Under the pieces are notes generated by a model, which had not been told where the DNA came from, made no database searches, and saw only the letters and a program-made list of their open reading frames with translations. Below, in pieces: positions 7,479 through 25,340 of a DNA stretch of 25,340 nt (positions are counted from its first letter, which is position 1; each line of letters starts with the position of its first letter). The DNA comes from a virus. Its lineage: Duplodnaviria; Heunggongvirae; Uroviricota; Caudoviricetes. A program made the translations under genes and the position numbers. The stretch is from the IMG/VR virus record IMGVR_UViG_641736116_000024. One strand, 5' to 3'.

Positions 7479-7492
7479 GGTGTTTACTCCGT

Positions 7493-8271: not shown

Positions 8272-8274
8272 GCG

Positions 8275-8987: not shown

Positions 8988-9086
8988 GACTACCTCTGAA
9001 AAGTCGGGCGGTGGACGCCGGTGCAGTGTCAGGTGATTCACCCTCACTGACCGGCGTGCCGCCCTGGCGCGGGGCGCATTCGGTTG

Positions 9087-9830
9087 TTAACTGGCTTTCT
9101 TTTTCGGGCGTCCACGTTTTGCCGGTGTCACGCTCCGGGTCTTACGCGGGGCGCGGGTGGCCGCTTTGGGCTGCGGCTCCGGCTTCGGTTTCAGCTCCCG
9201 CTCCAGTCGTTCAATCTCTTTTTTGACGCCTGCCTGACAGTCGAGCTGTGTCGCACGTTGCAGGTGAGCCAGCGCACCGGCGGCATCACCAGCGTCACGC
9301 AGAAACAGACCGGTGATTTTGTGCAGCTTTGCACGCACTTCATCAGGCATGTCTGCCGTGGCGGTCAGTGCAAGGGTCTCCGTCAGCAGGCGGGTATCCA
9401 CAGACTCACCGGCAGCGTGGGCGCGCATGGCCGCGAGCGCCACCTCCTCGGTGAACATATACGGCGGGGTGCGGCGGTGTTTACCCGGCATGGTCAGACC
9501 GTACTTCAGGGCATAACGGGCAATCTCCAGCGCACCGGCAATATCGCCGGTATCCAGACGCCACAGCATGACCGTCATCAGAATGTCATCCTGTGCACCT
9601 TTGCCCTGCTCCAGCACGCCGTTCACCCACGGCAACCAGAACGGCAGCAGTTCGCGTTTTTTCGCGGCCTTCAGCTCTTTTGAATAAATCGCTTTCAGTG
9701 TGCGCTGGTCTGCGGCCAGCTTGACCAGCATCTGCTCATAGACAGTTGCATGTCGCAGCGGGGCGGCGTCCCGCTGCGCGGTCATCGCTGCCGAGACCCG
9801 CATCATGTGGCGCTGTGCGGGACTCGTCAT
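9087..9830 (-). CDS. M: Terminase endonuclease (small) subunit gpM
   Basis: 247 aa with a basic C-terminal tail, P2 gpM length and position. Confidence 0.9.
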   Translation of the reverse strand: MTSPAQRHMMRVSAAMTAQRDAAPLRHATVYEQMLVKLAADQRTLKAIYSKELKAAKKRELLPFWLPWVNGVLEQGKGAQDDILMTVMLWRLDTGDIAGALEIARYALKYGLTMPGKHRRTPPYMFTEEVALAAMRAHAAGESVDTRLLTETLALTATADMPDEVRAKLHKITGLFLRDAGDAAGALAHLQRATQLDCQAGVKKEIERLERELKPKPEPQPKAATRAPRKTRSVTPAKRGRPKKKAS

Positions 9831-9833
9831 CGG

Positions 9834-10907
9834 TTACGCTCCCGGCTCTGCGGTCACTTTAGTCGGTGTGGAGAAGTCACCGACCTTAATTTTTTCCACC
9901 AGACAACCGGCGGCGTAGTCTTCCACCACGTAATCAATGTTCATTGACTCGTAGTTCTCCACGCGGTCGAGTTTCGGGTTTTCCACAATCACGCGGCGAT
10001 GGCTGTCATCCATGTAGTAGATGGACAGGTTTTCCAGCTTCGTGATGAGCATCGCATCCGCCGGGAAGTACGGGACGCGTACCGCCGGCAGGTTACCGAT
10101 GCGTTTCTGGCTGATGATGACGTCAGCGGCCAGCATCTCGCTGTTGTCCTGCTCCCTGTTGACGATGGGAAAATACTTGTCCGCCAGCAGCTGACGCCCC
10201 ACAATCACCACAAGGTCAGGGTCTTCCTGATACCACGGCTCAATCAGGTTGTTGGTCGCATCCATCACCAGTGCATCGAGGCTGGCATAATCACCGCCCT
10301 TACCCACGCGGATGACCTCAGAGGTCGTGTGACCTTCCTCGTCAGTAACCTTGCTCATCACGCGCGCCGGGGCTTCATTGCGGTATTTCTGCAGCCAGCC
10401 GACCGCCACATCCTGCAGCATCTGGTTACTGCTGCGGTCAGAGGTTTCGGCACGCCTCACGCCGTTAAAACCGGCCATGATTAAATCAAGGGACTGGCGT
10501 TTGATAATGGCGTTACGGACACGGAGCTGGAAATCCTGATAACGCGCCCACAGGTCAAGCGTTTTGTAGCGGATATAAAAATCGAAGTTAATCTGGTCGC
10601 ATTCGTACTTGTTTGACGCCAGCTTCGAGAAGTCCTTCGGCTGACGCTCGGTGCCACCGGCGGTGTCTGTGGTGCTGGCGATGGAGCCGGTGACACCAAT
10701 ACCAATTTTTTCCCCTTTCATTTCGCTGACCGGCACAATGTTGATGCGGGTCAGAAAGTCAGAGGACTCCTGCATGGTGTTCATCAGGGTCTGGGTGACC
10801 GACGGTTCAACGGTGAATTTTTTCGACACATCACCGGCGTCGATGCCGTTCAGTTCGGCAACACGGGACAGGTAGGCATTAAATTTAAAGCGGGTTTCCT
10901 GGCGCAT
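9834..10907 (-). CDS. N: Major capsid protein gpN
   Basis: 357 aa, P2 gpN length and position. Confidence 0.95.
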   Translation of the reverse strand: MRQETRFKFNAYLSRVAELNGIDAGDVSKKFTVEPSVTQTLMNTMQESSDFLTRINIVPVSEMKGEKIGIGVTGSIASTTDTAGGTERQPKDFSKLASNKYECDQINFDFYIRYKTLDLWARYQDFQLRVRNAIIKRQSLDLIMAGFNGVRRAETSDRSSNQMLQDVAVGWLQKYRNEAPARVMSKVTDEEGHTTSEVIRVGKGGDYASLDALVMDATNNLIEPWYQEDPDLVVIVGRQLLADKYFPIVNREQDNSEMLAADVIISQKRIGNLPAVRVPYFPADAMLITKLENLSIYYMDDSHRRVIVENPKLDRVENYESMNIDYVVEDYAAGCLVEKIKVGDFSTPTKVTAEPGA

Positions 10908-10965
10908 AGTTTTTCCTGAAATTAAGGGTTAATCGTGAAGGTTTTCCCGGACTGGCTGACGCCGG

Positions 10966-11820
10966 TCAGCAGTTCGTCATCAGGGCGTCACCGCCACCGC
11001 CGGTGGCCTTGCTGCGGCGCTGCTGGGTCAGACTTTCGGTGTGGTCGAGACTGTTTTTCAGGCGGCTGAATGCCTGGCTGGTTTCATCCGCCCTGTCAGT
11101 CACCTCCTGCTTAAGTGCGGAAAAGGCGGTTTCCATCTCAGCGAGTCGCTGCTCAGTGGCGCTCAGCTTTTCCTGCACATGTTCAGCAACAGCGGTCACC
11201 GCTTCATGCACGTCATTCAGACGGGCGTCATCGCTGGCCTGTTTGCGGCCAAAAATGGATTTCACCTTTTCGGTCAGGGCGGTGAACACGGTTTCAGGCA
11301 GGTCTTCAAATTCCAGCTCAACAGGCGTTGCTACTGAAATCAGGTTTTCAGGGCTTAATTTGAAGCGGTTCAGGGGGTTGTGTTTTGCCGTGCGGCAGAA
11401 TTCCAGGTATTCCGTGCCGAGGCTTGCCGGGTCATCGGTGACGGCCAGACCCACCAGATAACATTTGCCGGTGTTGGCAAAGTTCGGCTGAATTTCCATT
11501 GAGGTGTAGACCTTCTGCGCGGCCTTGTTCATCGCGATAAGGTCATCGGTCGGGGTGATTTTCGCAAACAGCGCCCATTTGCCTTTCAGCGCCGAATCGT
11601 CATCAATCTTTTCGGCCTTCAGTTCGGCCACATCGCCATAACGTTTAAAAATACCGTCAGGCAGGATGCCGCGCAGATGTTCCAGGTTAATGCGGCAACC
11701 ATAGACACGCGGGTCAAAGGTTTCGGCCATTTCCTGAATATCCTGCGCACTGATGACACGCCCGTCACAGGTGTCACCCTCAACGCCGATACGAAAGAAT
11801 TTTGAGACTTTTTTTGCCAT
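10966..11820 (-). CDS. O: Capsid scaffolding protein gpO
   Basis: Start MAKKVSKFFRIGVEG gives 284 aa as in P2 gpO; AGGAG-like Shine-Dalgarno upstream. The ORF track extends 22 codons further upstream. Confidence 0.9.
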   Translation of the reverse strand: MAKKVSKFFRIGVEGDTCDGRVISAQDIQEMAETFDPRVYGCRINLEHLRGILPDGIFKRYGDVAELKAEKIDDDSALKGKWALFAKITPTDDLIAMNKAAQKVYTSMEIQPNFANTGKCYLVGLAVTDDPASLGTEYLEFCRTAKHNPLNRFKLSPENLISVATPVELEFEDLPETVFTALTEKVKSIFGRKQASDDARLNDVHEAVTAVAEHVQEKLSATEQRLAEMETAFSALKQEVTDRADETSQAFSRLKNSLDHTESLTQQRRSKATGGGGDALMTNC

Positions 11821-11993
11821 TGTCAGGAGTCCTGAATAGTGATTAGAAGAGTCACATGTCGGCATCAGTTTCCCGACGATGCGCATCCTCCGCCATCAGT
11901 CCCGGATGGCTTATCACTGACACAACAGCACCTTAGCGAATCGCGGGGCGCGACTCAGTAGCCTTGCCGTGTATTCATCACGGCGAGGTATTC
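11821..11993. promoter_or_regulatory. Divergent late promoter region between O and P
   Basis: Intergenic region between divergently transcribed O (minus) and P (plus), as in P2. No clean TGT-N12-ACA activator site was identified by eye. Confidence 0.35.
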
Positions 11994-13766
11994 ATGACCA
12001 TCACCACAGACACCACTCTTTTACACGACCCGCGTCGTCAGGCGGCGCTGCTGTACTGGCAGGGATTTTCCGTGCCGCAGATTGCCGCCATGTTGCAGAT
12101 GAAACGCCCGACGGTGCAGAGCTGGAAACAGCGCGACGGCTGGGACAGCGTTGCCCCCATCAGCCGTGTCGAAATGAGTCTGGAAGCGCGGCTGACCCAG
12201 CTCATCATCAAACCGCAGAAAACCGGCGGTGACTTCAAGGAAATTGACCTGCTCGGACGCCAGATTGAACGACTGGCACGGGTAAACCGCTACAGCCAGA
12301 CCGGCAACGAGGCAGACCTTAATCCGAACATCGCTAACCGCAACAAAGGCGGGCGGCGCAAACCGAAAAAGAATTTTTTCAGTGACGAGGCTATCGAAAA
12401 GCTGGAGCAGATTTTCTTTGAGCAGTCTTTCGAATATCAGTTGCACTGGTATCGCGCCGGGCTTGAGCACCGCATCCGCGATATCCTGAAATCCCGCCAG
12501 ATTGGCGCGACGTTTTATTTTTCCCGCGAGGCGCTGCTGCGCGCCCTGAAAACCGGTCATAACCAGATTTTTCTGTCGGCCAGTAAAACGCAGGCGTATG
12601 TGTTCCGCGAATACATCATCGCCTTTGCCCGGCTGGTTGACGTTGACCTGACCGGTGACCCGATTGTCCTGGGCAATAACAGCGCAAAACTGATTTTTCT
12701 CGGCACCAACTCCAACACCGCGCAGAGCCATAACGGCGACCTGTACGTCGACGAGATTTTCTGGATACCGAATTTTCAGGTACTGCGTAAGGTGGCATCA
12801 GGTATGGCCTCACAGAGTCACCTGCGCTCGACCTATTTCTCCACCCCGTCCACGCTGGCGCACGACGCCTACCCGTTCTGGTCGGGTGAACTGTTCAACC
12901 GGGGACGCGCCAGCGCCGCCGAACGCGTGGAAATCGACGTCAGTCATAACGCTCTTGCCGGTGGGCTTCTCTGTGCGGACGGTCAGTGGCGGCAGATTGT
13001 CACCATTGAGGACGCCCTGAAAGGTGGCTGCACGCTGTTCGACATTGAGCAGCTTAAACGCGAAAACAGCGCCGACGATTTTAAAAACCTGTTCATGTGT
13101 GAATTTGTTGACGACAAGGCGTCGGTGTTCCCGTTCGAGGAGCTGCAACGCTGCATGGTCGACACGCTGGAAGAATGGGAAGACTATGCGCCGTTTGCCG
13201 CGAATCCGTTCGGCTCCCGCCCGGTCTGGATTGGTTACGACCCGTCACACCGTGGCGACAGTGCCGGATGCGTGGTGCTGGCACCGCCGGTGGTGGCCGG
13301 TGGCAAATTCAGAATACTTGAGCGTCACCAGTGGAAAGGCATGGACTTTGCCACCCAGGCTGAATCCATCCGCAAACTCACCGAAAAATACAACGTCGAA
13401 TACATCGGAATTGATGCCACCGGCCTCGGTGTCGGCGTGTTCCTGCTCGTTCGCTCGTTCTATCCCGCCGCACGCGATATCCGCTACACGCCGGAAATGA
13501 AAACCGCAATGGTGCTCAAGGCAAAAGACGTTATTCGCCGTGGCTGTCTGGAATATGACGTCAGCGCCACCGACATCACCAGCTCGTTTATGGCTATCCG
13601 CAAGACCATGACCAGCAGCGGACGCAGCGCCACCTATGAGGCCAGCCGCAGCGAGGAAGCCAGCCACGCCGACCTCGCCTGGGCGACCATGCACGCCCTG
13701 TTAAATGAGCCACTCACCGCCGGTATCAGCACCCCGCTGACATCCACCATTCTGGAGTTTTACTGA
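11994..13766 (+). CDS. P: Terminase ATPase (large) subunit gpP
   Basis: Start MTITTDTTLLHDPRRQAALLYWQGF with GAGGT upstream gives 590 aa; stop overlaps the Q start. Confidence 0.9.
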   Translation: MTITTDTTLLHDPRRQAALLYWQGFSVPQIAAMLQMKRPTVQSWKQRDGWDSVAPISRVEMSLEARLTQLIIKPQKTGGDFKEIDLLGRQIERLARVNRYSQTGNEADLNPNIANRNKGGRRKPKKNFFSDEAIEKLEQIFFEQSFEYQLHWYRAGLEHRIRDILKSRQIGATFYFSREALLRALKTGHNQIFLSASKTQAYVFREYIIAFARLVDVDLTGDPIVLGNNSAKLIFLGTNSNTAQSHNGDLYVDEIFWIPNFQVLRKVASGMASQSHLRSTYFSTPSTLAHDAYPFWSGELFNRGRASAAERVEIDVSHNALAGGLLCADGQWRQIVTIEDALKGGCTLFDIEQLKRENSADDFKNLFMCEFVDDKASVFPFEELQRCMVDTLEEWEDYAPFAANPFGSRPVWIGYDPSHRGDSAGCVVLAPPVVAGGKFRILERHQWKGMDFATQAESIRKLTEKYNVEYIGIDATGLGVGVFLLVRSFYPAARDIRYTPEMKTAMVLKAKDVIRRGCLEYDVSATDITSSFMAIRKTMTSSGRSATYEASRSEEASHADLAWATMHALLNEPLTAGISTPLTSTILEFY

Positions 13767-14800
13767 TGAGCAAGAAAAAAGGGAAAACACCGCAACCTGC
13801 GGCAAAAAAAATGACCGCCAGCGCCCCGAAAATGGAGGCATTCACCTTTGGTGAACCGGTGCCGGTACTCGACCGCCGTGACATTCTGGATTACGTCGAG
13901 TGCATCAGTAACGGCAGATGGTATGAGCCACCGGTCAGCTTTACCGGTCTGGCAAAAAGCCTGCGTGCTGCCGTACATCACAGCTCACCGATTTACGTCA
14001 AACGTAATATTCTGGCTTCAACGTTTATTCCGCACCCGTGGCTTTCCCAGCAGGATTTCAGCCGCTTTGTGCTGGATTTTCTGGTGTTCGGTAATGCGTT
14101 TCTGGAAAAGCGTTACAGCACCACCGGTAAGGTCATCAGACTGGAAACCTCACCGGCAAAATATACCCGCCGTGGCGTGGAGGAGGATGTTTACTGGTGG
14201 GTGCCGTCCTTCAACGAGCCGACAGCCTTCGCGCCCGGCTCCGTGTTTCACCTGCTGGAGCCGGATATTAATCAGGAGCTGTACGGCCTGCCGGAATATC
14301 TCAGCGCCCTTAATTCTGCCTGGCTGAATGAGTCGGCCACGCTGTTCCGCCGCAAGTATTACGAAAACGGCGCTCATGCCGGATATATCATGTACGTCAC
14401 CGATGCCGTGCAGGATCGCAACGATATCGAAATGCTTCGCGAAAACATGGTCAAGTCGAAAGGCCGCAACAACTTTAAAAATCTGTTTCTCTATGCCCCG
14501 CAGGGGAAAGCCGACGGCATTAAAATTATCCCGCTCAGTGAAGTGGCAACGAAGGACGATTTTTTTAATATCAAAAAAGCCAGCGCCGCTGACCTGCTGG
14601 ACGCGCACCGCATCCCCTTTCAGTTGATGGGCGGCAAGCCGGAGAACGTCGGGTCGCTGGGTGATATTGAGAAAGTGGCAAAGGTCTTTGTCCGCAATGA
14701 GCTTATCCCGCTACAGGACAGGATCCGCGAGATAAACGGCTGGCTCGGTCAGGAGGTCATCCGCTTTAAAAACTACTCACTGGACACTGACAACGGCTGA
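13766..14800 (+). CDS. Q: Portal vertex protein gpQ
   Basis: 344 aa, P2 gpQ length and position. Confidence 0.95.
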   Translation: MSKKKGKTPQPAAKKMTASAPKMEAFTFGEPVPVLDRRDILDYVECISNGRWYEPPVSFTGLAKSLRAAVHHSSPIYVKRNILASTFIPHPWLSQQDFSRFVLDFLVFGNAFLEKRYSTTGKVIRLETSPAKYTRRGVEEDVYWWVPSFNEPTAFAPGSVFHLLEPDINQELYGLPEYLSALNSAWLNESATLFRRKYYENGAHAGYIMYVTDAVQDRNDIEMLRENMVKSKGRNNFKNLFLYAPQGKADGIKIIPLSEVATKDDFFNIKKASAADLLDAHRIPFQLMGGKPENVGSLGDIEKVAKVFVRNELIPLQDRIREINGWLGQEVIRFKNYSLDTDNG

Positions 14801-14803
14801 ACA

Positions 14804-14828
14804 TCGCCGCCTGCGGGCGGCTTTTTTA
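14804..14828 (+). terminator. Rho-independent terminator after Q
   Basis: GC stem GCCGCC-TGC-GGGCGGC followed by a run of six T immediately after the Q stop. Confidence 0.6.
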
Positions 14829-14969
14829 CACCCCGTCATCACGCCCTCACACGCTCACCACCGCACAAAACACCCCGCAGACACACCAACGCCTCAACGG
14901 GCAGACTAAGCGCCATCACGACGCGCTCAGACGCTGAAAAAATAAAATCAGCACCACCGCCAGCGCGCA

Positions 14970-14988
14970 GTGCTTTCCCCGCCTCGCC
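14970..14988. other. cos: cos site (19-nt cohesive end sequence)
   Basis: GTGCTTTCCCCGCCTCGCC is the exact reverse complement of the P2 cohesive end GGCGAGGCGGGGAAAGCAC as I recall it; it lies between Q and the cargo region, as in P2. Confidence 0.8.
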
Positions 14989-15117
14989 CGCCCGCTTCAT
15001 GTGGCGATTTTAATGCGGTTGCATTTTTATCGAAAGTCTCGTCTCACAAATCCCTCCCTTCACTAAATAGACTCATTATCCACATGCAATCTAATTCAAA
15101 AAAATGCATGTATAGTA

Positions 15118-17088
15118 TTAAAGGTCATCAATTAAACCTAAAGGCAAACCGTCCTCACCAACCGAGCTATAATGAGCGATAATATTCGAAAGTTCACCAG
15201 TAGAAAACGAATTAGGCAAATCATTATCAACTAATATAATCTGGCACGGAACATTTTTTCTTTCTGCTTTTTGAACTGTATTCAATAGTTGTTCATAAAT
15301 ATTTTGATACTTCATCGGATCTGACATTCCCTCAAGGTCATCCTCGAATGCAAGAGTTTCTTTTGAATATTTTTCCTTGGTCTGTTTCCCTAAATATTTG
15401 CCAACCGTATCAAATATCAAAAGTAAAGGATGGTTAACATTATGATCTATTGCATAATCAAGAATAGACAAAAGATACCCAATAGAAGAAATAGTTCTCA
15501 AACCTCCGGATGTTATTTTAAAATATTCTTTTTCTCTTATAACAGGAATGTAATAGCTTTCAGAGATTTTTATCCCCGTTCTGTTTTTGATATTAATACC
15601 CTTCAAATACTGACTAAATCTATCACCCAAACCTTGTAAAATGCCCTCCATGCTAGGTGCGTTTTTCTTTAACGCCTCCAAGCGTTCAGTTAATGCTTCA
15701 ATATCTTTTCTCAGTACCTGATACTTTTCAAGCAGTTCCTCTTGCTGGTTTCTAACCTTCAAATCTTTTACTAACTGCTCCCTAACCTTCTCATTTTTTG
15801 AGATCTCTTTAATATAAAAATCTCTCTGAGTCAAGAATGGTGTAATCATTGACTGGCTTTCTTCGTCAATCAATTCTCTCAACTCGTCAAGTCGTTCATC
15901 TAATTCCTTTTTATAACCTGATTCTTTTTTTAATTTAAATGACATTTCTGAGATCATGTCATTAATATTTCGTCTACGTCGACTAAGTGAATTCAACTCT
16001 TCATTAAGATCTTTTTCTGATGAAATTTCAAATGGAAAATCAGAATCATCTATTTTAATGTGGCTATCACAGACTGGACAGGAAAATACTTCCTTATCCA
16101 ATACACCAATGCGAGAATTTGCTGTTTTAATCGCTTTGAGTTTTTCAATATCATTATCATAGTCATTTTTTAACCGCGAATATTTATCAATCTTATCCTC
16201 AAGCGCAGTAATATTTAATATGCACTCTTTGTATTTAAGCGAAATAAAATTGTGAGCATCTTTCAATTCTGTATACTGTATGGAATCCGCTTTCATATTT
16301 TTATCGAGAGCAGACAAACCTGCAACAAGTTCTTCTAAAACAAGATCTATCCTATTAATCTCATCATCAATTGATTCAATCGTTTCATAGTCTGTATCGC
16401 GAAGAAATTCAGATATTATCTGATACTTCCTATTTAATTCCGTTACTAAACTACTTTTTGCAGATATTTCACCTTGGAGTCTGGCGATGCTTTCATCCAA
16501 CACATTGAACATGTATTTAAAAACTTCTTTCGTAAATGCGTAGCGGGACCAATCACCCAATCGCAAGAAAGATTTACTACCAATATCATCCTGACTTACA
16601 TAAACAAATTTATATATATTTCTAAAACTTAACCTGCGCATCTGTGAATGAGCTTTAGAAGGAGACACCTTAATTTCAATCTTTGGAAAATTAAGACTAT
16701 CAAGTAAAAACTCCGAAAAAACACCATCAACATTTGATAATGGGCTATAATTAGGAGCGTATTTTTTCGGAAAATGTTTATGTAAATCATCAAACTTACA
16801 ACGATAAACTTCTATTGCTTTTTTATGATCATAGATATCTCTTACGATTGTGAATACAGTATCATTGATCACTACTTCAAGAGCAGCATAGTTTACTGAT
16901 GTTTTTATTTCATCTGCTAAATCTATAGAGCTAGCACCTAAAAGATAATTAATAAACTCCAGAATGCTTGACTTACCTGTGTCAGAGTCTCCGTAGATAA
17001 CATTGAGACCTTTATAAAAAGTAGTGACGTAGTTTTTACGAACGCCAACAAGAATCAAACTATTGATATTGAGATATGATTTCATCAT
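15118..17088 (-). CDS. ABC/SMC-Rad50-like ATPase with central coiled coil and CxxC zinc hook; ATPase component of an ABC-three-component (Lamassu-like) system
   Basis: 656 aa. Walker A GDSDTGKS (aa 33-40); long charged, heptad-rich middle containing CPVCDSH; C-terminal signature-like KITSGGLR; Walker B/D-loop LLLIFDTVG. No TOPRIM or nuclease domain recognised. Start overlaps the upstream stop (ATGA). Confidence 0.75.
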   Translation of the reverse strand: MMKSYLNINSLILVGVRKNYVTTFYKGLNVIYGDSDTGKSSILEFINYLLGASSIDLADEIKTSVNYAALEVVINDTVFTIVRDIYDHKKAIEVYRCKFDDLHKHFPKKYAPNYSPLSNVDGVFSEFLLDSLNFPKIEIKVSPSKAHSQMRRLSFRNIYKFVYVSQDDIGSKSFLRLGDWSRYAFTKEVFKYMFNVLDESIARLQGEISAKSSLVTELNRKYQIISEFLRDTDYETIESIDDEINRIDLVLEELVAGLSALDKNMKADSIQYTELKDAHNFISLKYKECILNITALEDKIDKYSRLKNDYDNDIEKLKAIKTANSRIGVLDKEVFSCPVCDSHIKIDDSDFPFEISSEKDLNEELNSLSRRRRNINDMISEMSFKLKKESGYKKELDERLDELRELIDEESQSMITPFLTQRDFYIKEISKNEKVREQLVKDLKVRNQQEELLEKYQVLRKDIEALTERLEALKKNAPSMEGILQGLGDRFSQYLKGINIKNRTGIKISESYYIPVIREKEYFKITSGGLRTISSIGYLLSILDYAIDHNVNHPLLLIFDTVGKYLGKQTKEKYSKETLAFEDDLEGMSDPMKYQNIYEQLLNTVQKAERKNVPCQIILVDNDLPNSFSTGELSNIIAHYSSVGEDGLPLGLIDDL

Positions 17089-17597
17089 TTCTCCTTGAAG
17101 ACTTGATTTATAACAGAGTTTAACTTAGAGGTAGGCAATGCTTGTAGCGGTAACAATGCTTCGGATAGTCGTTTTATTTCTTTAAAATATCCATCAGTCA
17201 ATGAGCTAGCAAATTCCTTACCTTTTTCAGATAAAAATAATTTAACACTCTCATTATTTTTTTTCTCAGCTGAGAGCAATCCCCGCAATGACATAATTTT
17301 TATAAGATATTTCACTTTGGAATTGTCGAATAAGATATCTACATTTGTTGAAAAACTCTTTATTGTATAAGTTAACTGGGACTCGACACAAGCAGGCTTT
17401 TTCCCCGAAACTGTAAGAGCATAATCAATTTTTGATGGGTTTTTTATCAGATACATAAAAATTTGTATTTTATTAATATCTAATGATAACACTCCTTTTT
17501 TGCTATGAGATAATATAGATATAGCAATGGCAAGCATAGCAAAATTCAAGCTATACTCTTCATCAAGAGGAATATACGGCAAGTTATTTTTCTTCAT
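17085..17597 (-). CDS. Small middle component of the three-gene system (LmuC-like position)
   Basis: 170 aa with no recognisable motifs; AT-rich; translationally coupled on both sides (14-nt and 4-nt overlaps). Confidence 0.5.
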   Translation of the reverse strand: MKKNNLPYIPLDEEYSLNFAMLAIAISILSHSKKGVLSLDINKIQIFMYLIKNPSKIDYALTVSGKKPACVESQLTYTIKSFSTNVDILFDNSKVKYLIKIMSLRGLLSAEKKNNESVKLFLSEKGKEFASSLTDGYFKEIKRLSEALLPLQALPTSKLNSVINQVFKEK

Positions 17598-18807
17598 GAT
17601 TACCTCGCCGTAATTGCTCCAAAGTTTCTACGCTGGTTTCAGATGACCAGACAATATCCCTGTCATTTTTGTTAGCCAGTTGATGCAACATTCCTTTCTT
17701 ATGTATCGTTTCTAAACTTTTTATAAGAGAATCTAACGACGACTTATCCTCTTGGGCTATTCGTCTATGAACAGCAGCAATAAATTTATCTGGGGAAATT
17801 GAATTCGCGATATATTGCTCATACTCTTCCTGGTAAATCTCCCTTATTTTAGAATACAAATGACCAAGTAGTTTCCTATCGTAATCACTCGTAAAAATAT
17901 TTCTCGCAAGCTCAGCATTATAATAATATTCCTTTGCATGCATAGCGATATCCTGATGTATATCTGCGACAATCATTTTTAAGACGAAATACTCATTATC
18001 ATATTGTTTCTCATCAGAAAAACGCTCAACACATATCTTCTTGGGTGCTTCTAAATTTATCTGCTGAATAAATTGCTTTACCGCAACAAACACTGTAGAC
18101 GAGCTGTTTTCGGGCTTGCAAATTGAGCTATGCCCTTCATTAACTGCAATTGAGTTATTTCGTTCACTATCCATCGGTAATGCGCTTTTTTTATCAACTA
18201 TAGTGTCATGAGAACCATAAACATATCTAGTGATAGGAAGTTTTTTGCTACAATTTATCCAGCGCCTATTCAACGTATCGGTCGCTTCACTTAACAATCC
18301 AAGATCTACTAACTGAGCATTTGAAGATACCATTGAAGTTATATTCGCCAATTTAGCACCAAAGTGAGGGACTGCTAACGAAATGAATCCAATTATATTA
18401 GATTGTTCCTCATGCTCAACTTTTTTTAGAATTAGATTTTTTGATATTACCCCCCCCATACTATGGGCGATTATTATAATTCGAGAGTAATCACTTAGCG
18501 TTACCCTAATCTCAGTATACAATAACTCAGCTATTTCATCAGTTGGTAAATTTCTCTCTAACTTATTTTTCTTAGAGAAAATACGAGCCCATAATCCTGA
18601 CGTTTTAGCATACGTTTGTGTAAATTTGGTGAAATAATTGAAACATGCAATATCAAATACATTGCCAATGTCTTCATCTTCTGCTAATAGTTTTGGAAAT
18701 GAAGTTTCTTTATTAAAGTTCCATGTTTCCAAACCACCATTTAATCCATGTACAAATAGTATCAGGCTATCTTTTTTCTCGTGGCTTATCCATTCAACCA
18801 TGCTCAT
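17584..18807 (-). CDS. Alpha/beta-hydrolase (lipase/esterase-like) effector with a C-terminal helical domain; LmuA-like effector position
   Basis: 407 aa. Oxyanion-hole LILFVHG (His20-Gly21), nucleophile elbow IIIAHSMGG (Ser116), downstream YVYGSHDTIVD and NEGHSS as candidate Asp/His. C-terminal about 180 aa is helical and charged. Confidence 0.7.
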   Translation of the reverse strand: MSMVEWISHEKKDSLILFVHGLNGGLETWNFNKETSFPKLLAEDEDIGNVFDIACFNYFTKFTQTYAKTSGLWARIFSKKNKLERNLPTDEIAELLYTEIRVTLSDYSRIIIIAHSMGGVISKNLILKKVEHEEQSNIIGFISLAVPHFGAKLANITSMVSSNAQLVDLGLLSEATDTLNRRWINCSKKLPITRYVYGSHDTIVDKKSALPMDSERNNSIAVNEGHSSICKPENSSSTVFVAVKQFIQQINLEAPKKICVERFSDEKQYDNEYFVLKMIVADIHQDIAMHAKEYYYNAELARNIFTSDYDRKLLGHLYSKIREIYQEEYEQYIANSISPDKFIAAVHRRIAQEDKSSLDSLIKSLETIHKKGMLHQLANKNDRDIVWSSETSVETLEQLRRGNHEEK

Positions 18808-18896
18808 ATGCTTTTCTGCCGTGTATAAAAATTAAACTATAACAAACAATTCCTCAACAATAACATATTGTTACCCCGTTTGACCGTTTTTTTCAA
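18808..18896 (-). promoter_or_regulatory. Putative promoter region for the cargo operon
   Basis: AT-rich intergenic spacer between the A stop and the hydrolase start, with TATAGT and TATACA -10-like hexamers on the minus strand. No experimental support. Confidence 0.3.
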
Positions 18897-21179
18897 CTAC
18901 CACTCACGCTGTCTGTCAAAAAAGTCGATATCGTTATCAAATTTAAAACGCTTATGCCCAAAATCCAAAACAGCTCCGCGAGCGAGAGCTTCAAGCTCCC
19001 AATAACTAGCCTGAATGTCACTTTGTGCAAGAAGAACCTTAATTTTCGGGATAGTCTTTCTCTCCTGCCTTGTCAACCGGGCGGATGGGGCAGGAAAGTA
19101 GCTTCGACCATTGAAAGGGGTAAAGCTCTGCTGTGAACGATTACTGCATTTCAGTTCATTACTCAATAAGTCTCTAAGTACCTTCATAATGCCTGGCTCG
19201 GTCCAACTTAGAATCCCTTCATCTATTAAATTTAACACCGCTGCAGCATGCTCAGTCGGTGTGGGAGCCGGTAACGAAGTATCACCACCGGTGAGTTTTC
19301 CACAGTTATTGACAGGACTCCGAGGCGCGGCGATGCCGCTTTTTAAAGTCAAAGGCTCAACGACCGGAACTTTCGGCACAATGCGCCAGTCCGTCGTTCT
19401 GGTGATATGAATATGACGCGCGCCGAGATGCGGCGCGTAAATGCCGACCACTCTCTCGACTTCTTCCTCGTACTCGTTAACGTCATCCGACGGGCTACGG
19501 GCGACCCTGACAGTCTGACAATCGCGCGGGACATTTGCCCCACCCTGCGCGCTGATATACAACGCAAAATCACCACTGTCTGCGGCAGCGCGAGCAGCCT
19601 CGACGCGTTCGTCAAACTCATCAGCAATACTGACGCCGCGAGGCAATTTGCGTAGTTCACGGTAAGCCCCCATTGTCGGCAGTCCAACCGTTTTAAATTG
19701 CGGAATGCGCCACGTTGACGCCCATGCGGTAACAGCCGCGGCAGTATCTTTAAGCGGCTTACCGGTATCGTTATCGAGCTGACCATCCAGTGCATAGCCG
19801 TCGATGTTTTTTGAAATGTATTTCGCGATATATCCCGCAGCACCGCCCCGGTTAAGGTGTTTTGCCTGAAAACGGTTTCGCGCAGCTCCTCTTTCGTCTC
19901 CATCCTCTTTGAGCGCGTAGCGACGCATGATTTCGATAATCTGGTTACGCTGGCGTGGATTACAAAAAAGCATCATATGCCAGTGCGGCGTTCCGTCGTG
20001 GTGTGGCTCGACGACACGCAAACCGTAGACCTGTAAATCATTATCCTTGAATGCCGTGCGCATCAGGCTCCAGATGCGGCAGAGATAACGCTGCGCATCC
20101 TTTGGATTAAATGCCTCATCGTTCCAGCCGTGATTAAGCTGAACGGTTTTACTTTCGCCTTTTCTGACCTGACGTGTCGGGTGATACTTTGACGGCGCGG
20201 TCAGCGTGATAAACATCCCCACATCACCCTCTGCGGCGGCGTAACGCTCAATACCGGCAATGGTGTTCATCAGCTCCATCCGGCGAATTTCAGGATTAGA
20301 AATACTGCCCATCACCTTACTGATAAGGTCGATGCGCTCGCCGGTTTCCCTGTTTTCAAGGTCACACGATTTAAGAAATTCCAGATTTGCCTGGCGGCGC
20401 GCACGCACATCACGAATGGCGTGTTTACTGGCATAAGGAGAACGGTCTTTATTGACCTCCCCGACAGCTATCAGTAACGCTTCATGCCAGCGCATACGCT
20501 GGCCTTTAAGCTGATGAGTCCACCACTCATCGTTAAACAGACGGGCAATGGCAGAATATGCCTGCCTCGTGGTCATCTGCCCTTTACGGTATATTTTCCA
20601 GTAGAGAGGGGAAATATTGAAAGCACGTGCAGCGCCAGCAACATGACCATAGAGGTGAGCCTGCGCCTCATCCGTAAACAGCGATTCTTTTTCGCCATGC
20701 GCATCCACCCAGGCATCACTGAGTTCCCCATACATCATGAAAAGCTGCGATGAGATACGGGCAGCAAACTTTTTCAGCTCCTTGTCATTCATTCCCGGCA
20801 GGCGCGCATAGTGGTCACGCTCTGCCAGAAACAGTAACGACGCGTCGGTGTTCATTTCATGGCGCTGATTCACACGCTCAATGCGCGGCCATAAACGACG
20901 CTGAAAAGTGGATGTGAGGAAATAAAACCCGTGCACCGGGCTTTTATTGCGCCGGATGTGGTCATAGCGTGAAGTAAACAGCGAGCGCAAAAAGTAAGGC
21001 AGGCGGTTAATCGTGGATAAAACACCTTGCACCTGACGCATCTCGTCACGTGTAAGGGGTCTTTCGCGCCCGACGGCCTCGCGTGGCGCGTTCCATGCAT
21101 AAGCACCGGTAAACGCCTTACCGGTGCCTGCAGCAAATGCTGACGGAGGGACAAAACGCCCGGAGGCTTTAACGGCCAT
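18897..21179 (-). CDS. A: Replication initiation endonuclease gpA (rolling-circle initiator)
   Basis: Start MAVKASGRFVPPSAFAAGTGK as in P2 gpA, giving about 760 aa. The ORF track extends 14 codons upstream. The C-terminal region of about 100 aa is AT-rich and appears to diverge from P2 gpA as I recall it. Confidence 0.9.
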   Translation of the reverse strand: MAVKASGRFVPPSAFAAGTGKAFTGAYAWNAPREAVGRERPLTRDEMRQVQGVLSTINRLPYFLRSLFTSRYDHIRRNKSPVHGFYFLTSTFQRRLWPRIERVNQRHEMNTDASLLFLAERDHYARLPGMNDKELKKFAARISSQLFMMYGELSDAWVDAHGEKESLFTDEAQAHLYGHVAGAARAFNISPLYWKIYRKGQMTTRQAYSAIARLFNDEWWTHQLKGQRMRWHEALLIAVGEVNKDRSPYASKHAIRDVRARRQANLEFLKSCDLENRETGERIDLISKVMGSISNPEIRRMELMNTIAGIERYAAAEGDVGMFITLTAPSKYHPTRQVRKGESKTVQLNHGWNDEAFNPKDAQRYLCRIWSLMRTAFKDNDLQVYGLRVVEPHHDGTPHWHMMLFCNPRQRNQIIEIMRRYALKEDGDERGAARNRFQAKHLNRGGAAGYIAKYISKNIDGYALDGQLDNDTGKPLKDTAAAVTAWASTWRIPQFKTVGLPTMGAYRELRKLPRGVSIADEFDERVEAARAAADSGDFALYISAQGGANVPRDCQTVRVARSPSDDVNEYEEEVERVVGIYAPHLGARHIHITRTTDWRIVPKVPVVEPLTLKSGIAAPRSPVNNCGKLTGGDTSLPAPTPTEHAAAVLNLIDEGILSWTEPGIMKVLRDLLSNELKCSNRSQQSFTPFNGRSYFPAPSARLTRQERKTIPKIKVLLAQSDIQASYWELEALARGAVLDFGHKRFKFDNDIDFFDRQREW

Positions 21180-21444
21180 ATGAGCCAAAAGCCTCTGAGC
21201 AACGCTTGCTGAGTTGCTCAACCTGCGCGTTTAAATCAGCAAAAGACTTTGCGCTTCCGGTCAGAATATCGTGATGCATCAGGCCGGAAACGAGCTGGCT
21301 TAATTTCGGGTAATAACCAACCACCGCCAGCCATTCCTGACCGGCGTTTTTACCGCTTTCCGCTCTCTTTTTCTCGTGGAGAATAAACTGAAAGCTGTCA
21401 CTGGTAACGACATAACGTTCGCCAATTTCAATACGAATACTCAT
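21169..21444 (-). CDS. Small early-operon protein (P2 orf83 position)
   Basis: 91 aa, in the early operon immediately upstream of A. Confidence 0.6.
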   Translation of the reverse strand: MSIRIEIGERYVVTSDSFQFILHEKKRAESGKNAGQEWLAVVGYYPKLSQLVSGLMHHDILTGSAKSFADLNAQVEQLSKRCSEAFGSYGR

Positions 21445-21665
21445 GCCGTTCTCCGGTAACGTTTGTTTTTTGCTTCAAAGACTGACTGACAGGAAACACA
21501 ACGCGTGGCTGACGGGTAAGCCGCACGACGGGCAGCAGGTATTGGCGCGTCACACTCTTCGCAAACCAGCGCAGAAGCACCGCAATGTTTTACCCTTGCC
21601 GCGTTAATCTGGCGCTCCAGTAATTCAGCCTGTTGTTCCTGAATAAAATCTACGTTGTCCGGCAT
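21441..21665 (-). CDS. TraR/DksA-family C4 zinc-finger protein (P2 orf82 position)
   Basis: 74 aa with CGASALVCEECDAPIP...RCVSCQ, i.e. two CxxC pairs. Confidence 0.7.
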   Translation of the reverse strand: MPDNVDFIQEQQAELLERQINAARVKHCGASALVCEECDAPIPAARRAAYPSATRCVSCQSVFEAKNKRYRRTA

Positions 21666-21667
21666 TA

Positions 21668-21970
21668 TCAGCTCCTTTTATCGTTAAGTTTCCTGGATAC
21701 ATCAGCGCAATAACTGGCAAGTTCTGTCGTTAATTTTGTCAGTTCATCCACTGAGGAAATTTGCTTGTGGAATACAGCGCGTTTAACAAGTAAATTGACC
21801 ACATCAGACAGGAGGTTTAATTCATTCTGATAAATCGCGATAACAGATTCAGTTATGTCGCGTTTTTCTTTATCAAGGCAAAGTTGAATAAGAGACAAAT
21901 CGCCATTTTTCATAACGGCGATTTTTAAGGCGTTATTCAGTAATACAACTGAATGAGAACAGGACATCAA
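21668..21970 (-). CDS. Hypothetical early protein (P2 orf81 position)
   Basis: 100 aa ORF in the early operon. Confidence 0.55.
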
Positions 21971-22191
21971 AGCACCTCCCCGCGAGACAATCCGATATTG
22001 TGAAATTTTTCCGACTCCTGACTGAGCAGCTCGACTATCTCCACGCGGGATAACTCCGCCTTTGTGATATGGCGAATCATGGCGTCAAGATGAGAAGAAA
22101 AGCGTGTCGCTGCGTCGGCCTGTGCTTCGGCTCTGGCCTGTTGCAGCAGTAATGCGTATTTACCGCACTTGTTTTCAGAAACTGTATGCAT
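21967..22191 (-). CDS. Hypothetical early protein (P2 orf80 position)
   Basis: 74 aa ORF in the early operon. Confidence 0.55.
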
Positions 22192-22254
22192 GACTTTCTC
22201 CAGGCAAAAAGAAGCCCCGCACGATTAAGTGCGTTAAAAACTCTGGTTAATTAT

Positions 22255-22755
22255 TTAATGCAGATATTGCTCTGGTTTTACCGACGTCAGAATTGTCGGT
22301 GCATACTCAAACAGGCTGAATAATTCACGTAATGCACGGAATAAAGCATCACGCCAGTAACATGATTCTTCATTAATTCGCCAGTATGGCTGGTTGAATT
22401 CTTTTTCAGTCAATCCGGCATGCATAAATAAAGTACGACGCTGACTGACTGTTAAAAAACTAATATATGCATACTCACTTGCGCCAACCTGACGGCGTTT
22501 TGAGAATGCCCCACGCAATTCATCAATTGCACAAACCAGCCGTTCACGTTCGACGTCGTTCATTTCTTCAAAACGCATCGTTGCGTGACGCTGTTTTAAC
22601 TGCGCATGGAAGCAAACCGTTAGCCGTTCGCGTTCCATCATCTGATTATAATAATCACATGTATCCTGCCAGCGAGGGACGGCAAGATGCTTGCCAATTA
22701 TCCGGCGCATAGCTGCTGGCTGTTTTTCAACGAGATTGAGCGTCATCACTGTCAT
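22255..22755 (-). CDS. B: Replication protein gpB (helicase loader)
   Basis: 166 aa, P2 gpB length and position. Confidence 0.9.
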   Translation of the reverse strand: MTVMTLNLVEKQPAAMRRIIGKHLAVPRWQDTCDYYNQMMERERLTVCFHAQLKQRHATMRFEEMNDVERERLVCAIDELRGAFSKRRQVGASEYAYISFLTVSQRRTLFMHAGLTEKEFNQPYWRINEESCYWRDALFRALRELFSLFEYAPTILTSVKPEQYLH

Positions 22756-22946
22756 TTCCAGACCCTCCGGCTTTTCAGAAAGGTCAGAGCCTTTTTTAAC
22801 GGACTCTGTTTTTTGGTGCGGATAATGATTCCCTTACGCCCCTTACCGTGGGTGATGGTGAAGTCAATCGCCCTGGGGCTTTCGTTACGCAATAACTGAG
22901 CAATACAACGAGGCTCATTCATACGGTTCTCCTTAACGTGGTTCAC
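22752..22946 (-). CDS. Hypothetical protein (P2 orf78 position)
   Basis: 64 aa basic ORF between cox and B. Confidence 0.5.
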   Translation of the reverse strand: MNHVKENRMNEPRCIAQLLRNESPRAIDFTITHGKGRKGIIIRTKKQSPLKKALTFLKSRRVWK

Positions 22947-23208
22947 CGAGACCTAACCACATCAACCAGCCGTCACGAATCTCTTTAGGACGGCTTTCAT
23001 AAGCCAGTTTTAGTCCGTTATTCCATGCCGGAAGGTATACCCAATATTCACCAGCACGCCCCGATACTGACTGAGGGTCAGTAATCTCAATAACTGGTAA
23101 TTTCCCTTTCTCAATCATGCCCCTTACAGCTCTTGGAGTTTTACCAATGAGTTTTGCAAACTCCTGATAAGGCACGGCATCAGTCACGCTTACAAGCTGT
23201 CTATTCAT
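22933..23208 (-). CDS. cox: Cox: excisionase and repressor of the lysogenic promoter
   Basis: 91 aa; contains IPYQEFAKLIGK...GKLPVI...GRAGEYWVYLPAWNNGLKLAYESRPKEIRDGWLMWLGLGEPR matching P2 Cox; first gene of the early operon. Confidence 0.9.
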   Translation of the reverse strand: MNRQLVSVTDAVPYQEFAKLIGKTPRAVRGMIEKGKLPVIEITDPQSVSGRAGEYWVYLPAWNNGLKLAYESRPKEIRDGWLMWLGLGEPR

Positions 23209-23233
23209 CTGCTACGATTCTCCCTTAGTGCTT

Positions 23234-23252
23234 CTAATGGCTCCTAATGGCT
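23234..23252. promoter_or_regulatory. Tandem direct repeat CTAATGGCT x2 in the cox/C switch region (candidate repressor operator half-sites)
   Basis: CTAATGGCT at 23234-23242 and 23244-23252, 10 bp apart, between divergent cox and C. P2-type repressors bind directly repeated half-sites. Confidence 0.4.
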
Positions 23253-23329
23253 AATTATTGCCTAAAAGGATAACTCCAGAAGCACAACATTTCACACTAT
23301 CAGCAAGAAATTACGCAATCGGAGTAATT

Positions 23330-23629
23330 ATGTCAATAGACGTTTCGGAGAAGTTGAAGCTAATCCGTGAATCTGAAAGGTTAAACCGTAAAGAATTCAG
23401 TGAATTAACTGGTGTAGCCTACAGCTCACTTTCGAGCTATGAGAGCCGGTCAAAAAACGCTGGAGTTGAAGCCATAATGAAGGTCTTACAACATCCTAGA
23501 TTTACTAAATATACTTTGTGGTTCATGACTGATCAGGTAGCTCCAGAAGCCGGGCAAATTGCGCCCGCTCTCGCACACTTTGGGCAAAACGAAACAACGT
23601 CGCCCCACTCCGGTCAAAAGACTGGTTAA
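23330..23629 (+). CDS. C: Immunity repressor C
   Basis: Start MSIDVSEKLKLIRESERLN with GGAG upstream gives 99 aa; C-terminus PRFTKYTLWFMTDQVAPEAGQIAPALAHFGQNETTSPHSGQKTG matches P2 C. The ORF track extends 24 codons upstream. Confidence 0.9.
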   Translation: MSIDVSEKLKLIRESERLNRKEFSELTGVAYSSLSSYESRSKNAGVEAIMKVLQHPRFTKYTLWFMTDQVAPEAGQIAPALAHFGQNETTSPHSGQKTG

Positions 23630-23744
23630 CAATTTATCGTGAATATATTCATCACAAGTGCCTACTATTGGTGGCTAAATTTCAGCCACCACGAAAAAAG
23701 CGATTAGTAGTAGCAAAAAAAAGTACCACTCGGAGGGTTTTCTG

Positions 23745-24758
23745 ATGGCAATCAAAAAACTCGATGATGGTCGATATGAAGTGGACATCCGCCCTACTGG
23801 ACGTAACGGAAAACGCATCCGTAGGAAGTTTGATAAGAAAAGCGAAGCTGTCGCTTTCGAAAAATACACGTTGTACAACCACCACAATAAAGAATGGCTA
23901 TCAAAACCAACAGACAAACGACGTCTGTCGGAACTGACACAGATCTGGTGGGATTTAAAGGGTAAACACGAAGAGCATGGGAAATCTAATCTTGGAAAAA
24001 TTGAAATCTTCACAAAAATAACGAATGACCCATGCGCATTTCAAATCACGAAATCCCTTATCAGCCAGTACTGCGCCACCCGAAGAAGTCAGGGTATTAA
24101 ACCTTCGAGTATCAATCGTGATTTAACATGTATTAGCGGCATGTTTACAGCCCTGATTGAAGCGGAGTTATTCTTTGGTGAGCATCCTATCAGAGGGACA
24201 AAGAGGCTTAAGGAGGAAAAACCAGAAACAGGCTATCTCACACAGGAAGAAATAGCCTTACTGCTTGCAGCACTTGACGGCGACAATAAAAAGATTGCGA
24301 TTCTTTGCCTAAGTACAGGAGCACGTTGGGGAGAAGCAGCTCGTTTGAAAGCAGAAAATATCATCCATAACCGCGTCACGTTTGTTAAAACGAAAACAAA
24401 CAAACCACGCACCGTCCCGATCTCAGAGGCTGTTGCCAAAATGATCGCGGATAACAAACGAGGTTTTTTATTCCCTGATGCTGATTACCCTCGCTTCAGA
24501 CGAACAATGAAAGCAATAAAACCGGATTTGCCAATGGGGCAAGCCACACATGCACTAAGGCACAGCTTTGCCACTCATTTCATGATTAATGGAGGAAGTA
24601 TTATCACGCTACAACGGATACTAGGTCACACGCGGATTGAGCAAACTATGGTTTACGCTCATTTTGCGCCAGAGTACCTTCAGGACGCCATTTCTCTTAA
24701 TCCGCTAAGAGGTGGTACTGAGGCCGAGAGTGTCCACACAGTGTCCACAGTAGAGTAA
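23745..24758 (+). CDS. int: Tyrosine integrase (P2 Int)
   Basis: 337 aa; catalytic region HALRHSFATHF...LGHTRIEQTMVYAHF gives the R-H-R-Y signature. Confidence 0.95.
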   Translation: MAIKKLDDGRYEVDIRPTGRNGKRIRRKFDKKSEAVAFEKYTLYNHHNKEWLSKPTDKRRLSELTQIWWDLKGKHEEHGKSNLGKIEIFTKITNDPCAFQITKSLISQYCATRRSQGIKPSSINRDLTCISGMFTALIEAELFFGEHPIRGTKRLKEEKPETGYLTQEEIALLLAALDGDNKKIAILCLSTGARWGEAARLKAENIIHNRVTFVKTKTNKPRTVPISEAVAKMIADNKRGFLFPDADYPRFRRTMKAIKPDLPMGQATHALRHSFATHFMINGGSIITLQRILGHTRIEQTMVYAHFAPEYLQDAISLNPLRGGTEAESVHTVSTVE

Positions 24759-24837
24759 CGTTTAAGGGCTTTCAGTGGTAATTTATGCCGCTCAAACCCG
24801 CATTGTACCGTTGAAAGCCCCTACTGGTGACACCCTA

Positions 24838-24864
24838 AATCTCCCTTACACGGGCTTATTTTTT
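24838..24864. other. P2 att core (prophage/host junction)
   Basis: AATCTCCCTTACACGGGCTTATTTTTT is the reverse complement of the 27-nt P2 core AAAAAATAAGCCCGTGTAAGGGAGATT as I recall it; it lies just downstream of int. Confidence 0.75.
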
Positions 24865-25022
24865 ATGCATAAGCCCTATCCCTGATAACCGTCTTCCATT
24901 GACCACATCGATAGAATCTCCCTTCATAGCACGATGCCTTTCACGTAACGGCATCGTGCTCGCACAGGTTCCGGCTAAGCACAACCAGAACGCGCATGTT
25001 TGACGCTTACCAAAAAATATTC

Positions 25023-25340
25023 TCACTCTCCACATTTGAATGTCAGACGAGCGACGCCATGTAATCCTGCACCTTCTGTCTTCAGGTCAACTATCTGCAT
25101 TTTTTTGCCCTGAGTAACACAGAAATGGGCTGCATCATTTTTTACTATATTTTCTGCACCAGATATTCTGCCCCTGGCTAAAGAAGCTTCGGCTTCGGTG
25201 TAGTATTGGTTATCGAGTTTACGCTGAATATTACTTTTATATGCAAGACCAAATTTACCGATACTTGTCTCATCATTATGCACAGCACAACCAGACATAA
25301 GAAAAACACTAATTAATGATATAGCAGCTATCTTTTTCAT
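25023..25340 (-). CDS. Host lipoprotein flanking the prophage
   Basis: 105 aa; signal peptide with lipobox (FLMSGC). Lies beyond the att core; the window ends at its start codon. Confidence 0.6.
   Translation of the reverse strand: MKKIAAISLISVFLMSGCAVHNDETSIGKFGLAYKSNIQRKLDNQYYTEAEASLARGRISGAENIVKNDAAHFCVTQGKKMQIVDLKTEGAGLHGVARLTFKCGE

Follow-up and report, generated by a model that had tools for sequence, protein, structure and literature searches.

The window analyzed here, a stretch of 25,340 nucleotides from a member of the Caudoviricetes (IMG/VR virus record IMGVR_UViG_641736116_000024), carries a three-gene operon, lmuA-lmuC-lmuB, on its minus strand between positions 15118 and 18807. 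With a probability of about 0.9, this region represents an intact short type II Lamassu system, belonging to the ABC-three component (ABC-3C) systems and to the lipase/CTD8-MC4 subtype, carried as cargo in the cos-proximal gpA-gpQ hotspot of an Escherichia coli O157:H7 P2-like prophage. A preliminary description of the sequence had proposed here an ABC-3C/Lamassu-family defense operon encoding an α/β-hydrolase effector, a small middle protein and a Rad50/SMC-like ATPase; Pfam, PADLOC and AlphaFold (AF2)/Foldseek agree with the three assignments, with PADLOC identifying the products as LmuA, LmuC and LmuB, and Pfam recognizing the domains CTD8 and MC4. The genes are as follows:

17584..18807, minus strand: lmuA, effector of 407 amino acids (aa), α/β-hydrolase with ABC-3C CTD8 (PADLOC, Pfam)
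17085..17597, minus strand: lmuC, middle component MC4, 170 aa (PADLOC, Pfam)
15118..17088, minus strand: lmuB, Rad50/SbcC-like ABC ATPase, 656 aa, a 'short' LmuB (PADLOC, AF2, Foldseek, profile)

The operon displays all the features defining type II short Lamassu systems that were examined computationally, including (i) the LmuB motifs, (ii) the LmuB coiled coil and hook, (iii) LmuC, (iv) the fusion of LmuA to one of the ABC-3C C-terminal domains (CTDs; CTD1-12), and (v) the operon order.

LmuB matches the PADLOC profile PDLC03862 from aa 2 to 656 (1.5e-235, 781 bits). The alignment of LmuB with 24 homologues sharing 43-87% identity discloses an invariant Q166 in the Q-loop and the following conserved motifs:

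16969..16992, minus strand: Walker A, GDSDTGKS (aa 33-40; K39), with G33, D34, S35, T37, G38, K39 and S40 invariant
16069..16080, minus strand: CPVC zinc-hook motif at the coiled-coil apex (aa 337-340), with C337, P338 and C340 invariant
15496..15516, minus strand: ABC signature, ITSGGLR (aa 525-531), with T526, S527, G528, G529, L530, R531 and the adjoining T532 invariant
15406..15423, minus strand: deviant Walker B, LLIFDT (aa 556-561; D560-T561), with D560 and T561 invariant

The Walker B consensus of short-Lamassu LmuB proteins is given as hhhhD[Q/S/T/E] in PMC12663957. According to the same source, the D-T Walker B, the single CxxC motif and the length of 656 aa place the protein among the short, hook-bearing LmuBs. 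The short class comprises proteins of ~550-700 aa versus ~800-1000 aa for the long class, and many LmuB clades carry a CxxC zinc hook at the apex. The AF2 model of LmuB (pLDDT 85.9) displays a Rad50-like head composed of an N-terminal half (residues 1-195) and a C-terminal half (residues 480-656), connected by long antiparallel helices (residues 199-326 and 358-476), with the apex (residues 327-357) bearing the CPVC motif.

Structural comparison of this model by Foldseek retrieves, in order of E-value, (i) 9uxh_F, from a type II Lamassu LmuACB complex with DNA (1.9e-20); (ii) 9hqx_B, from Salmonella enterica LmuACB bound to DNA (5.9e-20); (iii) 9hqu_A, from S. enterica LmuACB in the sequestration state (6.1e-19); (iv) 9nyg_B, from an LmuABC-DNA complex (5.1e-17); (v) 9ux7_A, from a type I LmuAB-DNA complex (4.2e-14); and (vi) 7zr1_C, a Rad50 that is the best non-Lamassu match (5.6e-11), with SMC, JetC and MukB ranking below Rad50. 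Profile and structure searches, which the preliminary description had named as the way to check the ATPase, thus place it with Lamassu LmuB (PDLC03862; 9uxh_F and 9hqx_B at the top) and not in an unrelated family. The LmuB family profile searched against PDB sequences also recovers 9hqu_A (2.5e-10), the LmuB of S. enterica, in an alignment that matches the two CPxC motifs with each other. Profile and fold searches were needed to connect LmuB with the solved Lamassu structures because direct sequence search is weak, giving no PDB match at E≤0.01 and, when the limit is relaxed to E≤10, 9hqu_A at 0.057.

The middle component, encoded between lmuA and lmuB, is assigned by PADLOC to LmuC (PDLC03869, 1.5e-52, near full length) and by Pfam to middle component 4 (MC4, PF20290; 5e-27, 95.3 bits versus a cutoff of 28.1). 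The direct sequence search of LmuC against PDB chains returned nothing even at E≤1.

The effector LmuA matches PDLC03851 over nearly its full length (3.5e-108). Pfam detects CTD8 (PF20284) at aa 265-389 (1.7e-35, 122.5 bits versus a cutoff of 27.6) and, within aa 10-208, DUF676 (4e-09, 36.7 bits; cutoff 20.3) and PGAP1 (3.6e-07, 30.6 bits; cutoff 24.3), in addition to Abhydrolase_1 just above threshold (26.7 bits versus 25.8). The protein and its catalytic residues map as follows:

18043..18807, minus strand: α/β-hydrolase (lipase-like) domain, aa 1-255 (triad, AF2, Foldseek)
18460..18462, 18205..18207 and 18130..18132, minus strand: codons of the triad Ser116, Asp201 and His226, respectively
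17641..18015, minus strand: CTD8, aa 265-389 (Pfam PF20284)

The nucleophile Ser116 lies within AHSMGG, a nucleophile elbow of the Sm-x-Ser-x-Sm type. The whole HSMGG elbow and the residues S116, D201 and H226 are invariant in 24 LmuA homologues of 41-92% identity. Ser116 and the Walker A lysine K39 of LmuB, which the preliminary description had singled out for mutagenesis, are both present in the translations. The hydrolase core is modeled by AF2 with a pLDDT of 85-95, and its α/β-hydrolase fold is confirmed at the level of the predicted model by 521 PDB matches at E≤1e-3, all of them α/β serine hydrolases among the matches listed. The fold neighbors include FphH, carboxylesterases, thioesterases, monoacylglycerol lipases and one membrane phospholipase A (6i8w). 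Sequence-based comparison with the PDB is less extensive, with the LmuA family profile recovering 7x2p_A, a 'putative lipase', at 3e-07, and the direct search giving one weak esterase match (E 0.083). By analogy with solved and modeled Lamassu effectors, CTD8 may serve as the docking and oligomerization module of LmuA.

The coordinates of the ORFs (open reading frames) agree with the preliminary description, which had reported three minus-strand frames of 407, 170 and 656 aa with short overlaps: lmuA and lmuC share 14 nt (17584-17597), and lmuC and lmuB share 4 nt (17085-17088, ATGA type). Shine-Dalgarno sequences precede lmuC (GAGG) and lmuB (AAGGAG), and the three genes are translationally coupled. 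The much higher AT content noted earlier for the region is borne out as well, the cargo having a GC fraction of 0.331 versus 0.554 for window positions 1-15024 and 0.474 for 19233-25340. Two further features frame the genes:

15025..18896: low-GC cargo island (GC 0.331), with P2-like homology stopping at ~15024
18808..18896, minus strand: AT-rich intergenic region of 89 nt between the stop of gene A and the start of lmuA, possibly holding a promoter of its own

Within this intergenic region, the sigma-70-like element TTGAAA-18-AACAAT (18896-18867) is a weak consensus match, not significant versus shuffled sequences. An AT-rich palindrome (AACAATA TGT TATTGTT) is also observed upstream of lmuA, at 18840-18860 on the minus strand, and could represent an operator or a weak hairpin. 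Searching the entire window for Rfam families and for tRNA genes returned nothing.

By nucleotide comparison, positions 318-25340 share 99.99% identity with the genome of E. coli O157:H7 str. TW14359 (NC_013008.1). Two landmarks delimit the module:

14970..14988, minus strand: cohesive end (cos) of P2, marking the hotspot on its left side (exact 19-nt match)
18897..19232, minus strand: 3' part of gene A, diverged over ~110 codons up to the stop, putative right-hand recombination joint of the module (GC 0.435)

The 19-nt P2 cohesive end GGCGAGGCGGGGAAAGCAC at 14970-14988 had no match in 100 shuffles. Terminase and portal genes lie to the left of cos, with the portal gene Q ending at 14800, and gene A, encoding the replication endonuclease, occupies 18897-21179 and is followed by early genes, cox, the repressor, the integrase and the host gene yegR. 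In reference P2 (NC_001895, compared over 30684-33426), where cosR is annotated at the right end, the interval from A to cos contains orf91, tin and old. The cos match and this comparison bear out the earlier placement of the operon between cos and gene A, where P2 has old and tin. The lmu operon runs from A toward cos, co-directional with gene A and immediately downstream of it, whereas P2 old/tin are transcribed the opposite way, from a mapped start near cos toward A. The P2 old promoter region is absent from the window because backbone homology ends ~36 nt past cos. The gpA-gpQ locus of P2-like prophages is a described defense hotspot, with cassettes that include SMC-containing ones (Rousset et al. 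2022, PMC9122126).

By megablast, homology with sequenced P2-like phages ends at ~15024, ~36 nt past cos, and restarts only at 19232, inside gene A. Up to ~aa 650 the product of gene A scarcely differs from that of P2, and thereafter it is far more diverged, with an overall identity of 89%; by visual estimate, the last ~110 residues share ~50% identity with P2 A versus ~99% upstream, and are homologous still. The distant blastn search of 18808-19240, covering the 3' end of gene A, found no match in the phage collection. The right-hand joint is located by these comparisons inside the essential gene A and not in the intergenic region, and the exchange that brought in the cargo apparently included the 3' end of A as well, as expected from recombination in conserved hotspot flanks. 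Neither a nucleotide search with the cargo DNA nor tblastn with LmuA found a match in 50,697 phage records, an absence by which the cassette is classed as accessory cargo and not as part of the P2 core. As far as these database comparisons reach, it is known only from prophages and chromosomes.

Among 5,426 complete E. coli genomes, the cassette is present in 96, always on the chromosome and in one copy per genome. At least 99% identity is shared by 84 of the 96 copies, and among those listed essentially all are from O157:H7, with dozens of O157:H7 chromosomes carrying a 100% identical cassette. The other 12 copies are ~97.3-97.4% identical and include those of E. coli B and REL606 (NC_012967.1 2112706-2116397). 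In E. coli B (B-DidR, NZ_CP115968.1 1761791-1778287), the cassette is intact within a P2-like prophage that is likewise inserted at yegR and has undergone extensive deletion. The prophage around the cassette in E. coli B/REL606 is without its capsid genes, terminase genes and part of its portal genes; judged from this gene content, the defense cassette has outlived the phage that brought it. Comparison of the O157 and E. coli B alleles gives dN/dS values of 0.13 for lmuA, 0.21 for lmuC and 0.11 for lmuB, at a dS of ~0.05-0.10 and with no ORF disrupted, values by which all three genes are under purifying selection. Copies in NZ_CP018245.1, NZ_CP038380.1 and REL606 differ in length by 1-2 nt and have an additional 'hypothetical protein' annotated, a sign that frameshifts may now and then inactivate one of the three genes.

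Beyond E. coli, Serratia marcescens displays the identical order (hydrolase-CTD8, MC4, ATPase) in a P2-like prophage, where gpA and the portal gene again flank the operon, with 63% LmuA identity. In Pseudomonas aeruginosa, the three-gene order is found at 42% identity in an island beside an OLD-TOPRIM ATPase and a UvrD helicase (a Gabija-like pair), Fic and NERD genes. The ATPases of these homologous operons comprise 656-670 aa. In PGAP/RefSeq annotation, the gene products are named 'ABC-three component system protein', 'ABC-three component system middle component 4', and 'AAA family ATPase' or 'SMC family protein'.

Among previously described systems, one comparable to the operon is the E. 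coli system Ec-Lipase (Haudiquet et al., PNAS 2025, PMC12663957), which is likewise a three-gene short Lamassu from E. coli with a lipase-type Ser-Asp-His effector and an LmuB bearing a CxxC hook and a deviant Walker B. Ec-Lipase is reported there to protect against lambda-vir, to be toxic when over-expressed, and to need the LmuB Walker A residue K42 and the lipase residue H215. The possibility that Ec-Lipase is this very operon is ruled out by the residue numbering, K42/H215 there versus K39/H226 here; in two further E. coli variants of LmuB, P0160 and P0227, the Walker A lysine is residue 38, not 42.

The structurally characterized S. enterica LmuACB and Vibrio cholerae DdmABC/LmuABC (9HQU/9HQX, 9NYG, 9UXH) share gene content and LmuB architecture with the operon; nevertheless, LmuB shows only ~15% sequence identity with its counterparts from these two species. 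The zinc hook is present in S. enterica LmuB, as here, whereas V. cholerae LmuB has lost it. In addition, the S. enterica and V. cholerae effectors are Cap4/PD-(D/E)xK nucleases with CTD7, in contrast to the α/β-hydrolase with CTD8 described here, and V. cholerae LmuC is of the MC3 type, whereas the present middle component is MC4. With respect to the ABC-3C systems as defined by Krishnan, Burroughs and Aravind (2020) and represented in Pfam by CTD8 (PF20284) and MC4 (PF20290), the profile matches lie above the gathering thresholds and no difference was found. Finally, the P2 old/tin genes occupy the same cos-proximal gpA-gpQ slot, with the same presumed exclusion of competing phages from the lysogen, and P2 Old is also an ABC-type ATPase, as is LmuB. 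However, Old is an unrelated protein, an ATPase-TOPRIM nuclease, and the lmu operon holds no TOPRIM domain.

Three families with related ATPases were considered as possible assignments and rejected: (i) SbcCD/Mre11-Rad50, there being no phosphoesterase domain in either LmuB partner; (ii) the OLD family (P2 Old, Gabija GajA), with a GajA match at the P-loop level only (E 6e-4, residues 19-57) and no TOPRIM; and (iii) Wadjet (JetABCD), with JetC profiles matching coiled-coil segments only, at E 6e-4 or weaker, and no JetA, JetB or JetD genes.

A mechanism can be proposed on the model of V. cholerae DdmABC/LmuABC, S. enterica LmuACB and E. coli Ec-Lipase. Before infection, the LmuB dimer and LmuC would hold the CTD of LmuA in an LmuA1-LmuB2-LmuC1 complex, keeping the effector monomeric and inactive. 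Upon infection, the LmuB heads would bind DNA ends or phage replication intermediates and engage with ATP, and ATP hydrolysis would be slow because the Walker B carries D-T rather than D-E. LmuA would then be released and oligomerize via CTD8, rendering the Ser116-Asp201-His226 hydrolase active. The target of the effector is most probably an ester, membrane phospholipid being the best candidate, so that the infected cell would die or arrest before the competing phage completes its cycle, an abortive infection by which the lysogen population and the resident prophage would be protected and which would depend on the ATPase, the effector and LmuC. It is rather unlikely, although conceivable, that the substrate is not bulk membrane phospholipid but another compound, such as a lipoprotein, a lipopolysaccharide (LPS) or acyl-carrier thioester, or a phage component, or that activation involves a higher-order assembly differing from the nuclease tetramer.

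The Lamassu family includes hydrolase effectors and acts by abortive infection. LmuB-type sensors are described in PMC12663957 as recognizing DNA ends and replication intermediates and not phage proteins. The sequestration-liberation-oligomerization model has been put forward in 10.1101/2025.03.14.643221, in which lipase LmuAs of CTD8/CTD9 are predicted as dimers and higher cyclic oligomers, and activation of non-nuclease LmuA by oligomerization is stated as unknown.

Several observations weigh against this reading of the operon, or against parts of it. The CTD of LmuA is all-helical and of low confidence in the AF2 model (pLDDT 35-62), and sequestration and oligomerization are put forward by analogy. 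The fold neighbors of the modeled hydrolase are generic and offer no discrimination between substrates. The scan for promoters and terminators gave nothing above shuffled expectation, with 13 promoter-like matches versus 16.6 expected and no convincing lmu promoter. The intact 97%-identical copy in E. coli B/REL606 also has to be accounted for, E. coli B being the classical permissive host of T phages; its presence there points either to T phages escaping detection or efficient restriction by the system, or to weak native expression. Furthermore, the experimentally validated Ec-Lipase is a different protein set from the O157 operon, set apart by its residue numbering, and the literature search found no published experiment on this O157 allele.

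The same E. coli B copy enters into a different view of the function, in which plasmids or other mobile DNA would be the chief targets of the system, or the operon would stabilize the prophage as an addiction module, and phage exclusion would not be its role. E. coli B plates T phages well despite its 97% identical cassette, the Lamassu DdmABC of V. cholerae restricts plasmids as well as phages according to the literature, and sensors of the LmuB type respond to DNA ends and replication intermediates and not to phage proteins. This principal role is nevertheless improbable, considering that the locus is the P2 position from which old and tin exclude lambda and T-even phages, that the E. coli Lamassu-Lipase put to the test protects against lambda-vir, and that the P. 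aeruginosa cassette adjoins a Gabija-like pair; the anti-plasmid and anti-phage roles, moreover, are not mutually exclusive. The kinship of LmuB with repair ATPases raises another interpretation, an SbcC/Rad50-type DNA-repair ATPase with accessory proteins that serves P2 replication or recombination and not defense. Several NCBI homologues are indeed named 'exonuclease SbcC' or 'double-stranded DNA repair protein Rad50', LmuB is weakly similar to Rad50 in NCBIfam and PDB sequences, and a descent of Lamassu from SbcCD has been proposed in PMC12663957. However, the ORF list and Pfam disclose no SbcD/Mre11 phosphoesterase partner in the operon, and the NCBIfam Rad50, SMC and RecN models score 13-26 bits versus cutoffs of 172-1000 (e.g. 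22.7 versus 1000), with the RecF model also leaving LmuB far below its cutoff, versus 781 bits for the LmuB-specific profile. Solved LmuB chains outrank Rad50 by ~9 orders of magnitude in Foldseek E-value, the partners are an ABC-3C MC4 and a CTD8-bearing hydrolase, and the absence of the cassette from reference P2 and 50,697 phage records implies that the phage does not need it, so that a repair function is scarcely credible.

It is similarly hard to sustain that the operon is a decaying or silent remnant, its sequence intact and its genes unexpressed or non-functional in O157:H7, a view that draws on the absence of a significant promoter, on a few O157 records with a 1-nt shorter copy and an extra 'hypothetical protein' that suggest occasional frameshifts, and on the heavy deletion of the E. 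coli B prophage carrying the cassette. Against it stand three intact ORFs with strong Shine-Dalgarno sequences for lmuC and lmuB and every catalytic motif preserved, dN/dS values of 0.11-0.21 between alleles that have diverged to a dS of ~0.05-0.10, and a cassette that is intact in E. coli B although the surrounding prophage has lost capsid and terminase genes. The identification as a short type II Lamassu system carried for phage defense is the reading retained.

The system itself is not new; it has an already catalogued architecture, consisting of a lipase LmuA-CTD8, MC4 and a short LmuB that bears a zinc hook. The earlier suggestion that the combination may not be characterized does not hold, as lipase effectors and CTD8 LmuA proteins are published, Ec-Lipase is validated and PGAP names two of the genes as ABC-three component. 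We know of no Lamassu lipase with a known substrate or activation mechanism. α/β-Hydrolase (lipase) effectors are already listed for Lamassu/ABC-3C, a lipase LmuA with CTD8 is explicitly mentioned in 10.1101/2025.03.14.643221, and 'Lipase' is treated as an effector type specific to short Lamassu in PMC12663957. PADLOC, Pfam and PGAP already recognize the system, PADLOC detection of Lamassu in O157:H7 collections has been published, the P2 gpA-gpQ hotspot is well described, and members of the Lamassu family have been noted in the literature in gpA-gpQ hotspots of P2 prophages.

The interest of the operon lies in its being a natural, intact Lamassu-lipase in the clinically important O157:H7 lineage, the TW14359/EC4115 genomes among them, as well as in the laboratory strains E. 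coli B and REL606, one that could affect the host range of phage therapy or biocontrol in O157:H7. It offers a native-context model for what lipase-type Lamassu effectors hydrolyze and how they are switched on. In addition, its position directly downstream of the rolling-circle gene A prompts one to ask how the rolling-circle replication of the P2 carrier itself can be tolerated by a sensor that responds to DNA ends and replication intermediates.

A final observation concerns the opposite end of the window, where positions 1-317 have no match to TW14359, the other 25,023 bases being 99.99% identical. The junction adjoins an 18-nt inverted repeat at 326-343 and 2219-2236 (ACGTTGGTTTGGGAGAAG and CTTCTCCCAAACCAAGGT, respectively), located in tail-fiber coding sequence, and in TW14359 a 'recombinase family protein' gene lies just upstream. 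The start of the window looks like a Hin/Gin-type invertible tail-fiber segment in the other arrangement.

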